From assembly GCA_019358935.1 (NCBI GenBank), contig JAHHIK010000173.1:1-11401 (forward strand): a stretch of DNA of 11,401 nt, written 5' to 3'. Numbering within the stretch: position 1 is the first letter of the stretch; every line of letters starts with the position of its first letter. Of this stretch, positions 7,047 through 11,363 are shown piece after piece. The position numbers were made by a program, and so were the translations under genes. Source of the DNA: Tolypothrix carrinoi HA7290-LM1 (GTDB lineage Bacteria; Cyanobacteriota; Cyanobacteriia; Cyanobacteriales; Nostocaceae). Below the pieces are notes generated by a model that saw only the letters and a program-made list of their open reading frames with translations, searched no databases and was not told the DNA's origin.

Positions 7047-7288
7047 CAACATCCGTCGTAAGATAAAAATAGTTGATGCAATGCCAGAAATAAATTTTGA
7101 TCGAATGCCCCATCTTTCCCTGGAGAGTCCTTTGATCCCGCCGCCAAATCTGCATATTATGGCAGGGAAATTACTTCTTCCCAGACCTCACACAAGTTAA
7201 ATAATAGTTCAGCTTGGCTTTGATGTGGTAAATTTCAAGCTAACCTCCAACAATAAATAAACCACTTTACTGAATATCAAACGAACAT

Positions 7289-7978: not shown

Positions 7979-8882
7979 TCTCAAGGATTTTGTCTTCGGC
8001 GATGAACCCCAGGCAGAACTATCAGGTCAACAGATAGTGCCGCTGACTGCCATTACTCTACCAACCAGTCAGCCCCGACGTTACTTCGATCCTCAAAAGC
8101 TTCAAGAACTGACGAATTCAGTCCGCAAGCATGGTATTTTGGAGCCACTACTGGTACGCCCACTGCCCGACAATGAAGGCAAGTATGAGCTAGTGGCTGG
8201 AGAAAGACGCTACCGAGCAGCTGTTGCCTCTGGGTTAAGTGAAGTTCCTGTGACCATCCGCACCCTCAGTGACTCTGAAGCACTACAACTTTCCCTCATA
8301 GAAAACTTACAACGGGAAGACCTGAACCCAGTTGAGGAAACGGAAGGGATTTTGCAACTGCTGTCATTCAAGTTAGAAATGGATGTGTCCGAAGTAGTGG
8401 CACGATTGTACCGGATGAGAAATGAAGCCAGCGGCATAGTTAGTCAAAACGTTTTGACTAACTTGGAAGGTGAAGCTATTCAGTCCTTGTTTGACTCACT
8501 AGGTCTAGTTAGCTGGGAATCCTTTATTACCACTCGCCTCCCCCTGCTTAAATTGCCAGAGGAAATTAAAGAAGCTCTACTCAGCGGATCAATAGCTTAT
8601 ACCAAAGCTCAGGTTATTGCCAGGGTAAAAGACCAAGATTTACGTCAAGCTTTATTAGAGGAAGCGATCGCCTCTGACTTGTCGTTAACTCAGATTAAGG
8701 AAAAAATAGCCGCTATTAACTGCCCTAAAACCAGCGATAAAGGAGAAAATGCAACGCTCAAAAGTCGAGTGGATACAACTTATAGTCTTTTAAAAAAATC
8801 AAAGATTTGGAATGACCCCCAGAAGCAAAAACACCTAGAGCAACTACTAGCGCAGATAGAAACACTCCTGACCAATGAATGA
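7959..8882 (+). CDS. parB: ParB/Spo0J-family CTPase partition protein (307 aa; start corrected from 7854 to 7959)
   Basis: QPRRYFD, GILEPLLVRP, YELVAGERRYRAA, ENLQREDLNPVEE. GGAGG RBS at 7948-7952 precedes ATG 7959, giving a 20-nt overlap with parA rather than 125 nt. Confidence 0.93.
   Translation: MTASRRSLKDFVFGDEPQAELSGQQIVPLTAITLPTSQPRRYFDPQKLQELTNSVRKHGILEPLLVRPLPDNEGKYELVAGERRYRAAVASGLSEVPVTIRTLSDSEALQLSLIENLQREDLNPVEETEGILQLLSFKLEMDVSEVVARLYRMRNEASGIVSQNVLTNLEGEAIQSLFDSLGLVSWESFITTRLPLLKLPEEIKEALLSGSIAYTKAQVIARVKDQDLRQALLEEAIASDLSLTQIKEKIAAINCPKTSDKGENATLKSRVDTTYSLLKKSKIWNDPQKQKHLEQLLAQIETLLTNE
8438..8463. promoter_or_regulatory. Perfect 26-bp palindrome inside parB; candidate parS
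   Basis: AGTTAGTCAAAACGTTTTGACTAACT is its own reverse complement. The palindrome is certain; the parS function is inferred. Confidence 0.6.
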
Positions 8883-9265: not shown

Positions 9266-9904
9266 CTACAAAAACAGAGATTGAACAGTCAGATCCTTCT
9301 GGGTGATACTGAAGTTACGCTGTTCTGCTGTGGCAACGAATGAAACGATCGCTTCACACGCCACAGCAACGGTTAACATCACCAGGTTTCGTGTCAGGGG
9401 ATAATCACAGACATCATCATTAACAAGAGAAGGAACGCGATAAACTTCATTCCAAATCACTTCTGCATAATCAGCCGATAGCCCAGCATGAAGACAAGGA
9501 ATGCTTAATTGTTCAGCATAATCTTTCACTGCTTGACGTGCCACACTATTGTCAAAGACATCGACAATTAGCTGGCTGTCTTGGAGTAGTTGAGTTGTAT
9601 TTGCTGATGTCAACTCAAGAGTCTTAGCATCAACTTTAGTACCAATTGCTCGATATAAATTGTTCGCTAAAATCTTCGCCTTGAACGCTCCCACATCGGA
9701 ACGGTAGTAAGGCTGAGTCGAAAGATTACGCTCCTCAATGCGATCGCGATCTATCACTGTAAGTTTATCAAAACCAGACCGAACTAAGTTTTCCGCAATG
9801 TTAGCTCCTAATGCTCCAGCGCCACAAATTGTTACAGGATAATTTTTTAGCTTTGCCATCACAGCATTGCTGCGGTAAAGCTGCTCGTGAAAAAAGATAC
9901 TCAT
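9266..9904 (-). CDS. ThiF/MoeB/E1-like adenylyltransferase lacking Zn-binding CxxC pairs
   Basis: GAGALG nucleotide-binding loop, DRDRIEERNLSTQ, GAFKAK, IVDVFDN. Cys in DDVCDYP lies at the crossover-loop position. Confidence 0.92.
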   Translation of the reverse strand: MSIFFHEQLYRSNAVMAKLKNYPVTICGAGALGANIAENLVRSGFDKLTVIDRDRIEERNLSTQPYYRSDVGAFKAKILANNLYRAIGTKVDAKTLELTSANTTQLLQDSQLIVDVFDNSVARQAVKDYAEQLSIPCLHAGLSADYAEVIWNEVYRVPSLVNDDVCDYPLTRNLVMLTVAVACEAIVSFVATAEQRNFSITQKDLTVQSLFL

Positions 9905-9906
9905 AA

Positions 9907-9957
9907 TAATTCGTAATACTCGCCAAAGGCGAGAAGCAAGCTACGTAATTCGTAATT
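9907..9957. repeat. Heptamer tandem repeat (TAATTCG, STRR-type) interrupted by an SDR-like hairpin
   Basis: TAATTCG-TAAT-[ACTCGCCAAAGGCGAGAAGCAAGCTA]-CG-TAATTCG-TAATT, with hairpin CTCGCC-aaa-GGCGAG at 9919-9933. Confidence 0.75.
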
Positions 9958-9977
9958 AATTAGTCAGATTGTTCTCA

Positions 9978-10811
9978 CTACTCTTGCTGTTCCATGACAC
10001 CTACTAAGGATTGCAAGTCAAAATCGCGATCGCGTCCACTCAGACAAATACCAGAACTAACAACAGTCAAATCAGTTTTAGCGATCGCACTACTATGGCG
10101 AACACCATCTTCCTCAGTTGTCCAATCGACTGTCCAGTAATCGCTGCGATCGTGGAATTGAGTTAAGGTACCGCCACCCATTTGCAATGCCTTTCTCAAT
10201 CGCTTTTCATCCTGTTGGGGTTGAGTAAATCCCTCAATGCGCCGAGTTCCTAATTCATACACTGTGCGGATTTCTGGAGTAATGCCCTTAAACTGTAATT
10301 CTTCAGCAGGAATGAGTTGCTTGAGGGCAGATTGCAGAGTTTCAGAAATTGCCGGATCGGTACGGCGATCGACTTCCTCAAACCAGCATGACTGCCCATT
10401 CCATCGGGCAATAATTTGCTCAAAGGTAACGCCGTCGGTAACTAAGTGGACTGCGATCGGCTTAACTACCTTCAACCGTTGACGCATATCTGCTTCATTC
10501 ACAGGGTATGCTAACCAAGTTTGTTTTTGCAGTGGGTGTGCTAACCGCAGTCGTATTTGGGGAAAATGTTGCAGGTATTCTGCAATCTGGGGTAAGTCTG
10601 CTTCTTCTACAACCGTTGCTATTTTCTCATCCACAGGCTGAAAGATGCCCCAACCTTGAAATTTACTAGGCTTTGGACTGAAGGTGTAGATCATCCCGGC
10701 TACCCGTGTGCGAACTCGTCCACCCTTGACACAGGGTGCGAGGAATTGGGTGGTATGTAACTGTGCTTCTGCGATCGCAATTTGGTTGATTAGCTTACGG
10801 ATGTCAGTCAT
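9978..10811 (-). CDS. Conserved-looking hypothetical protein (277 aa), co-oriented with the E1-like gene; C-terminal GICLSG motif
   Basis: Long ORF with natural composition and three HIP1 sites, ending 73 nt upstream of the ThiF gene on the same strand. Confidence 0.85.
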   Translation of the reverse strand: MTDIRKLINQIAIAEAQLHTTQFLAPCVKGGRVRTRVAGMIYTFSPKPSKFQGWGIFQPVDEKIATVVEEADLPQIAEYLQHFPQIRLRLAHPLQKQTWLAYPVNEADMRQRLKVVKPIAVHLVTDGVTFEQIIARWNGQSCWFEEVDRRTDPAISETLQSALKQLIPAEELQFKGITPEIRTVYELGTRRIEGFTQPQQDEKRLRKALQMGGGTLTQFHDRSDYWTVDWTTEEDGVRHSSAIAKTDLTVVSSGICLSGRDRDFDLQSLVGVMEQQE

Positions 10812-10913: not shown

Positions 10914-11363
10914 ATGACTACCCAAATACAACAAATATCAGAATCCCGAAAAAAGTTAGCATCTGCTTACCGTGCAGTTTACGCAATTGGAGTTTTATGT
11001 ATTTTTCTAAGCATAATATTCTTTGTTGCTGGTAATCGATTGCCTGATTATCTAATATTGGGAATTGGTTTTTTATTTTTTGGTTTACTCTATCTAGTTC
11101 TAGGTTTTTTTGTACAACGTAAATCAAAAATTGCACTAGGTATTGCAGTAGGATTGATGTCGTTAAATGTGTTAACTGGCATTTACAATATGATTCAAAC
11201 TGGTAAACCGTTTGGCTTGATTCTTCCCATGATATTTTTAGGTCAGACTATAGAAGGATTTAAAGCTATAGAAGTCAGGACTTACGCAACTGGCACATTG
11301 CGATCGCCAATTAGTAGTAATTTAGTACTAGAAACAAGTATTTCTGAAATCAGCCCTTTTTAG
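10914..11363 (+). CDS. Small integral membrane protein (about 4 TM); C-terminal ~29 aa probably derived from an inserted element
   Basis: Hydrophobic segments VYAIGVLCIFLSIIFFVAG, YLILGIGFLFFGLLYLVLGFFV, IALGIAVGLMSLNVL and FGLILPMIFLG. The element end starts at 11276. Confidence 0.75.
   Translation: MTTQIQQISESRKKLASAYRAVYAIGVLCIFLSIIFFVAGNRLPDYLILGIGFLFFGLLYLVLGFFVQRKSKIALGIAVGLMSLNVLTGIYNMIQTGKPFGLILPMIFLGQTIEGFKAIEVRTYATGTLRSPISSNLVLETSISEISPF

Follow-up and report, generated by a model that had tools for sequence, protein, structure and literature searches.

We analysed an 11,401-nucleotide stretch of DNA (the window) that makes up the entire contig C173 of the 7.96-Mb genome of Tolypothrix carrinoi HA7290-LM1 and carries, on its minus strand, adjacent genes for a 277-amino-acid protein (P0001) and a 212-amino-acid ThiF/E1-family enzyme (P0002). 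On balance, and with slightly better than even confidence, we interpret the pair as the E2-like enzyme and the E1 of an operon with five to six genes for protein conjugation with a ubiquitin-like protein (Ubl), accompanied by Y-RNA-like cassettes. The proposed parts of this operon are the Ubl, a Ro60-like TROVE/vWA protein, the OB-fold/E2-like protein P0001, a JAB protein where present, and the E1 enzyme. The system as such is real, conserved and unannotated, and probably joins bacterial Ubl conjugation to a Ro60/Y-like RNA particle. Conservation, gene linkage, the family membership of E1 and JAB and, by covariation, the RNA structure were observed directly. The survey comprised 80 genome loci from GTDB (mostly Nostocales), 80 metagenome loci, many of them short, and 16 viral loci. 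The features of the two window genes are as follows.

9978..10811, minus strand: P0001, 277-amino-acid OB-fold and minimal E2/UBC-like protein (open reading frame; model pLDDT 93.6; fold comparisons)
10338..10754, minus strand: P0001 residues 20-158, two beta-barrels, the second of which (83-158) matches OB folds
9981..10226, minus strand: P0001 residues 196-277, UBC/RWD-like domain (model pLDDT 90)
10044..10046, minus strand: codon of Cys256, candidate E2 catalytic residue (conservation)
9266..9904, minus strand: P0002, 212-amino-acid ThiF/E1-family adenylation enzyme without zinc motifs (Pfam ThiF, E 1.8e-27)
9407..9409, minus strand: codon of Cys166, candidate E1 thioester residue (invariant in alignment A6; kept in 168/168 relatives)

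The E1 enzyme and the E2-like protein

P0002 belongs to the ThiF/MoeB/E1 superfamily: it scores above the Pfam ThiF cut-off, and the Rossmann-fold GxGxxG, D-R, NLxxQ, K and DN motifs are invariant. Among 39 diverse E1 sequences (A6), the unchanged residues are G28, G30, G33, D52, R55, N60, Q64, K75, D118, N119, R123 and C166. The crossover cysteine, located in the motif DDVCDYP, was found in 168/168 distinct E1 relatives (161 by pattern, seven read by eye), while CxxC occurred in 1/168. Together with scores below every NCBIfam cut-off, ThiF and MoeB included, and with the lack of thiS/thiG or moaD/moaE neighbours in the loci, this sets P0002 apart from canonical cofactor-synthesis ThiF and MoeB enzymes. 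An earlier reading of the window from its sequence alone had described both open reading frames, DDVCDYP, the GICL motif of P0001 and an E1 domain with a crossover cysteine and no zinc-binding CxxC, all of which we confirmed; ORF and Pfam scans likewise detected no thiS, thiG or moaE within the window.

P0001, which the same reading had called an unknown protein, indeed matched no family in Pfam, NCBIfam, PADLOC or PHROGs. Searches of PDB sequences with P0001 and with the profile of an alignment of 110 full-length sequences (A1; 29-93% identity) yielded nothing significant, and a Pfam scan of the relatives revealed no family common to them and no E2 match in the 110 members. Relatives are numerous: the 90% collection contains 1220 (E 0.001) and the 50% library 735, and the closest ones of both window genes stem from Nostoc with 93-96% identity. 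Cys256 sits within the motif [ST]xGICLxxxDxxFDLxSL, GICL corresponding to residues 254-257 and positions 10041-10052. It is retained in 109/110 sequences of A1, where every other Cys column reaches at most 26. Alignment by hidden Markov model recovered it in 136/140 distant representatives possessing the domain (150 were counted, 10 of them without the domain, and two of the four exceptions are truncated there), in 120/120 close relatives and in 193/194 locus proteins. The conservation of Cys256 is beyond chance, and the proposed check for conservation of the GICL cysteine in homologues came out positive.

In the model, residues 196-277 are arranged as a helix, a four-strand meander, the G-I-C-L motif, a short helix and a further helix, without the HPN flap and the last helices of E2 enzymes. 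Structure comparison rows aligning at least 75 of the 84 residues of the Cys domain comprised nine UBC E2s and Csm1 among 15, and seven of eight long-aligning rows of a second comparison were of the UBC/RWD type. The domain spans Ubc13 (4-116), Rad6 (3-117), UBE2T (5-119) and Cap2 (8-148) from end to end. The top structural rows, however, represent unrelated folds, and Z is low. Foldseek returned no usable match for full-length P0001 and the Cys domain against PDB or for full-length P0001 against BFVD, nor did the ESM Atlas with P0001. The E2 resemblance suggested earlier finds some support in the long-aligning rows. The HPN motif is absent from P0001 (A1, n = 110), and H239 is kept in only 66/110 sequences. 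An hhalign comparison of the P0001 family with a shallow set of five HPN-bearing bacterial UBC proteins (those of 15 UBC loci bearing the motif used for cutting; three Prok-E2_B loci were left out) was blank, and reversed and shuffled controls were equally blank. A complex prediction with two copies of E1 and P0001 194-277 scored 0.01 and was used neither for nor against the assignment. A weak search for E2-E1 fusions among longer proteins gave one match in 29 candidates, a non-ribosomal peptide synthetase with an appended domain that is probably an artefact. UQ_con (PF00179) matches were observed in 14/301 genomes of the phylum (L224-L238), with 8/8 in one family.

According to the model, the first beta-barrel of P0001 is probably an OB fold as well. 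The barrels match nucleic-acid-binding types and also Mpa. The idea that this N-terminal part might itself be the modifier was rejected, since it consists of OB barrels and offers no Gly site.

Composition of the operon

The E1 gene directly follows that of P0001 in 79/80 genome loci, the sole miss being a contig end, so that the expected co-occurrence of the two genes was observed. The pair is not stand-alone: its upstream partners reside on another contig, C91 (locus L081), which carries the Ubl gene, an unknown gene for 247 amino acids, RNA cassettes and the Ro60-like gene.

C91:28719-28928: Ubl gene, 69 amino acids
C91:30791-32224: Ro60-like gene

A Ro-like gene (477-amino-acid vWA protein) was found upstream in 71/80 genome loci; among the nine others, six have less than 1 kb of upstream sequence and three (L032, L046, L073) truly lack a vWA gene within 8 kb. 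The Ubl, a protein of 66-71 amino acids ending in RPEAVYG, is encoded in 66/80 genome loci. Metagenome loci contained E1 (64), vWA (32) and Ubl (22) genes. Across 301 cyanobacterial genomes, P0001 occurs in 32 and the Ro-like gene in 33, all 32 lying within those 33 (kin in this count are not independent). The Ubl C-terminus reads RP[EQD]A[VI][YFW]G after an extended tail, with the Gly invariant in 24 sequences, and the cellular Ubl terminates at this Gly. Sequence searches for beta-grasp relatives of the Ubl were blank, and its strand-strand-helix-strand pattern was read by eye only. The earlier proposal of a divergent E1-E2 system was partly supported; a candidate modifier is encoded elsewhere in the genome, on C91.

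Searched against PDB, the profile of the Ro-like protein matched no chains other than Deinococcus Rsr (E 0.006) and two labelled "TROVE domain-containing" (E 8e-5, across both ring and vWA), which are probably the phiLo Ro60 of PMC12135203. Its Atlas neighbours are TROVE clusters (0.94-0.95), and vWA_Ro60 matches 5/16 members, placing the protein among vWA proteins; Pfam TROVE did not match. Judged by these profiles, the vWA protein is Ro60-like.

Two IMG/VR scans and one GenBank phage scan yielded the 16 non-redundant viral loci, which are viral as labelled in the collections (L135, with the same genes as L136, and first-scan duplicate contigs were left out; L140 was omitted from protein analyses). 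They lie on contigs of up to 595 kb, many of them in tRNA clusters. The vWA, P0001-family and E1 genes are present in 16/16, a JAB gene between the latter two in 14/16, and a Ubl in 14/16 (13 free, one fused to the vWA protein), in the constant order Ubl-vWA-E2-like-JAB-E1. The JAB protein is a Prok-JAB in 13/13 scanned cases and displays an invariant E...HxH...S..D motif, as in the JAB/JAMM family. No JAB gene was detected in the cellular loci (0/80 genome, 0/80 metagenome), and none was clear elsewhere in this genome. The neighbourhood survey that had been suggested thus found Ubl and vWA genes in cellular and viral loci and JAB in viral loci only. One viral Ubl (L137) ends in G-NG, and L093:5997-7970 encodes a natural Ubl-Ro fusion with RPDSVLG intact at the joint; both loci have a JAB gene, as would be expected if the Ubl Gly must be exposed. 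In L127:1-1379 and L139:6314-7694, where no Ubl was recognised, an 82-amino-acid open reading frame ending in Gly directly precedes the Ro-like gene; both loci also carry a tmRNA.

Y-RNA-like cassettes

The Ubl and Ro-like genes are surrounded by repeated RNA units. Each unit has an outer and a second stem separated by an internal loop (CC(Y)AA / ACUU); an invariant UACA leads on to the D, anticodon and T arms. ARAGORN made 336 same-strand calls in 177 loci, and 160 of them possessed the cassette flanks (68/80 genome, 11/16 viral and 17/80 metagenome loci). These 160 cassettes showed 36 different anticodon calls (four irregular), CUA appearing 39 times. Because the anticodon varies freely at orthologous positions and includes stop-reading CUA, UUA and UCA, we rejected the notion that the cassettes are decoding tRNAs.

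RNAalifold revealed two-sided changes in 19/21 pairs. It missed the outermost stem because the Nostoc and phage rows are out of register by 1 nt, and this stem was hence counted by motif anchoring: it pairs in 246/252 cells with 36 distinct stems (rows being related and motif-selected), compared to a mean of 197 and a maximum of 212 in 1000 shuffles. An RNA model built from 30 cassettes assigned 116 bits to the two C91 copies, which belong to the training set, and at most 48 bits to the rest of the genome; it also retrieved full-length copies in L125 and L138, outside the training set, and weak copies at four more places on C91. Scanning the cassettes with Rfam gave tRNA and tmRNA models only and no Y RNA family. 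The layout is that of bacterial Y RNAs, with units on the same strand, within about 4 kb of Ro, and consisting of a terminal stem and a tRNA-like module. The Y RNA motif GNCGAAN0-1G is not present in the cassette alignment (A9), CC(Y)AA taking its place. Several phage cassettes encode CCA after the acceptor-like stem; in Nostoc cassettes the acceptor is imperfect and CCA is missing.

In further cassettes (L081:6941-7125, 7141-7278, 8657-8730 and 11871-12075) the outer stems are shared but the cargo differs, being a long multi-hairpin structure, T/D arms in permuted order or one hairpin alone. This suggests that the RNA family is modular. Upstream of the Ubl gene on C91 (L081:6365-6448), an 84-nt RNA matches both ends of the tmRNA model with 47 bits, at the cut-off. 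It combines a tRNA-like domain with a short hairpin replacing the mRNA part and occurs in 28/80 genome loci; the full tmRNA of the genome is located separately on C107.

Genomic context

The remaining features of the window are listed below.

10914..11275, plus strand: gene of an accessory membrane protein, situated between P0001 and the Ro60-like gene and disrupted by an insertion sequence (non-core; family in 23/80 loci)
11271..11275, minus strand: 5-bp target-site duplication, second copy at C91:34151-34155, joining C173 to C91
11276..11401, no strand: terminal part of a multicopy insertion sequence at which the assembly broke; its other end closes contig C91
1483..8882, plus strand: helicase, dnaN, dnaX, holA, parA and parB block (Pfam; plasmid-like replication/partition context, outside the system)

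C91 and C173 are almost certainly neighbouring contigs, since they end in the two inverted-repeat ends of the insertion sequence, a matching inverted repeat being found on C91, and both ends are flanked by the same five bases, which occur as a single copy in relatives. In two of these (L001 and L004) the sequence continues uninterrupted across the insertion site, inside the membrane-protein gene. The 126 bases of the insertion-sequence end recur identically at the ends of nine other contigs.

The plasmid-like context noted previously was corroborated by parAB, the helicase and the extra copies of dnaN, dnaX and holA, which share 28-51% identity with the other copies in the genome; a second, more distant set of the block genes lies on C9. 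The block was rejected as a component of the system, because it adjoins the operon in 1/80 genome loci, that of Scytonema hofmanni UTEX 2349 (L035), where a complete operon stands beside an equivalent block with 90-98% identity. As, in addition, only 2/72,556 plasmid records matched, the system is not mainly plasmid-borne.

The class of unknown proteins of about 240 amino acids is represented in 57/80 genome loci and 0/16 viral loci; the member found here (247 amino acids, basic, no known family; L081:7405-8148) carries a 21-nt repeat insertion. A ribosomal L7/L12 paralogue resides within the operon in 22/80 genome loci (e.g., L037:3634-4026), a hint that the translation machinery may be a target or partner. 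Other neighbours on C91 are a CHAT-TIR-AAA_35 gene with an AAA partner upstream of the operon (L081:1-3558) and, behind the Ro-like gene, an inserted low-GC-looking gene for 496 amino acids that belongs to no known family (L081:10315-11805). A high-GC metagenome locus (L217:3984-7979) harbours two tandem vWA genes (529 and 702 amino acids). Four RNA libraries of relatives contained contigs over the Ubl-Ro region with 90-95% identity. These were not counted as expression because they are flat, come from runs whose contigs reach 7-22 kb and could reflect DNA carry-over.

Proposed mechanism and alternatives

From family knowledge and the conserved active site, the E1 enzyme very likely adenylates the C-terminal Gly (Gly69) of the 69-amino-acid Ubl. 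Two invariant cysteines and the fold make it likely, with somewhat less assurance, that the Ubl would form a thioester on Cys166 and then pass to Cys256 of the minimal UBC-like domain. Where encoded, JAB would trim or free the Ubl and may reverse the tag, as the G-NG tail and the Ubl-Ro fusion, both in JAB loci, suggest. With a chance that we place a little below even, no E3 would be involved: the OB barrels, together with the Ro60-like ring on the RNA stem, would select the targets, the tRNA-shaped head serving as bait or tether, and lysines would be tagged. Candidate targets are the Ro protein itself or proteins that handle tRNA, such as anticodon nucleases and factors of translation or RNA decay. 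The system likely serves to protect tRNA or RNA during stress or conflict between host and phage, for either side. A bolder version, which we consider rather unlikely, is an RNA-guided Ubl ligase in which the Ro60-like ring and interchangeable Y-like RNAs, their tRNA-shaped heads with diversified anticodon loops acting as bait, replace the E3 and the OB-E2 protein tags whichever enzyme attacks or handles the tRNA shape, or the RNA end. If so, phages would disable host anticodon nucleases, and cyanobacteria would employ the system for the converse purpose or under RNA stress.

A ThiS/Urm1-like sulfur relay, with the Ubl as sulfur carrier, persulfides on Cys166 and Cys256 and a thio-modified tRNA or tRNA-like RNA made on the OB folds and Ro ring, would suit an E1 of the ThiF family, the RNA-rich context and the presence of TcdA and Uba4 among the PDB relatives of the E1 profile. 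The gene just upstream in the related viral loci L127 and L139 looks like a desulfurase by its motif. Sulfur carriers, too, are processed by JABs, as table rows 4a-4d of PMC1779556 show. We nonetheless judge this relay unlikely: no rhodanese, desulfurase or thiolase family is common to the 80 genome loci or to more than 2/16 viral loci, the Cys domain has a UBC-like and not a rhodanese topology, and the E1 falls below the ThiF/MoeB cut-offs. Still less probable is that P0001 is no E2 at all. Its Cys domain would then be an unrelated small alpha/beta domain that serves as a metal, redox or hydrolase site, and the Ubl would be passed by the E1 directly to targets or used otherwise. The low Z, the missing profile match, the lack of HPN or a nearby conserved His and the unrelated top structural rows would fit; yet the one invariant Cys stands ahead of DxxFD, alignments over the whole domain are mostly to UBC/RWD, and the gene occupies the E2 slot in the Ubl-x-JAB-E1 order of every viral locus with those genes, all of which argues for an E2.

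Conjugation of the Ubl to RNA, the OB-E2 protein capping a free end (e.g., a 3' end threaded in the Ro ring) for protection, repair or decay, appears improbable to us. It draws on the fusion of the E2-like domain to nucleic-acid-type OB barrels, on the CCA of several phage cassettes and on the obligatory Ro60-like partner, whose family binds single-stranded RNA ends according to the available part of PMC4201824, but OB folds bind proteins too, as the Mpa match illustrates, and the Nostoc cassettes lack CCA and a perfect acceptor. Finally, along the lines of the earlier reading, the operon might be a stand-alone anti-phage system of the Bil or CBASS (cyclic-oligonucleotide-based anti-phage signalling system) type that tags virion proteins, with Ro and RNAs as incidental neighbours. 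The enzyme logic and gene order shared with Bil, the patchy distribution (32/301 genomes) and the TIR/CHAT/AAA cluster on C91 are in line with such a role. We regard it as highly improbable, given that the Ro-like gene co-occurs almost without exception, that the system is common on large viral contigs, and that PADLOC on the window pair matched a generic E1 domain only. The favoured interpretation thus remains an operon for Ubl conjugation to proteins with a Ro60-like partner.

Comparison with known systems

A widespread unannotated family, carried whole by large phages, would thereby join the short list of bacterial Ubl conjugation systems, and its E1 (212 amino acids) and E2-like part (82 amino acids) would be the smallest so far. 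It would link Ubl conjugation with Ro60/Y RNA biology, two fields hitherto separate, and couple the tagging of proteins to the surveillance of RNA. The partners tethered by Y RNAs and the reason for their tRNA mimicry are open questions in that field; with a kit of five genes and an RNA family of 120 nt that Rfam does not contain, they become testable in vitro and in a model strain of the Nostoc type. In full-text searches of the literature we found no Ubl/E1/E2/JAB operon tied to Ro60. The survey of Burroughs and Aravind 2016 (RNA repair), which reportedly covers Ro neighbourhoods, could mention the system, and our claim of novelty is limited to that extent.

The closest enzymatic parallel is Bil (BilABCD), which, as described in the accessible part of PMC10557695, encodes Ubl, Cys-E2, JAB and Cys-E1 in equal order without an E3, and whose BilB also lacks the C-terminal helices of UBE2D2; vWA or TROVE is not mentioned in that part, nor in the accessible part of PMC1779556. 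In contrast to the IAD-AAD-CYS architecture of Bil, the E1 described here is a single 212-amino-acid adenylation domain with no IAD, CYS domain or zinc, the 82-amino-acid E2-like domain is fused to OB barrels and has no CEHH, and a Ro60-like gene and RNA cassettes form part of the phage-carried core. Bub (6E/DUF6527) and type II CBASS Cap2/Cap3 likewise combine ThiF-type E1, E2-like and JAB parts, and in some BubAB loci, as in L093, a Ubl fusion would be freed by JAB. Bub, however, forms Tyr/Ser oxyesters and has DUF6527 (PMC11601596, in the part available), whereas both candidate catalytic cysteines are conserved here and no family of the DUF6527 type was seen to be shared in the loci. Cap2 is an E2-E1 fusion conjugating a CD-NTase, in contrast to the two separate Cys enzymes of our system.

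Nidhogg viruses (Helarchaeota-linked) also encode Ro60 (TROVE and vWA) and ThiF/E1-like proteins (bioRxiv 2021.07.29.454249); in the available text the genes are discussed separately, neither a Ubl nor an E2 is named for the viruses, and the E1 is interpreted as hijacking host ubiquitin. These viruses may be unrecognised members of the family. A few jumbo phages contain ROT/TROVE, with no JAB or Ubl noted in the part of PMC7824862 available. Bacterial and phage Ro60/Rsr with Y RNAs (Yrn1, YrlA, phiLo Yrl) share the TROVE-like and vWA protein, several nearby same-strand RNAs, and a terminal stem with an internal loop joined to a tRNA-like module, as far as the accessible parts of PMC4201824 and PMC12135203 show. 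The layout of Deinococcus Yrn1 in PMC4201824 resembles that of our cassettes, which possess a complete D/anticodon/T head of the Yrn1 type, not the permuted YrlA arrangement, and G(U/C)NCCYAA...ACUU, not GNCGAA. The Ro protein itself is divergent, falling below the TROVE model, and is linked to a Ubl cascade rather than to RtcB or PNPase.
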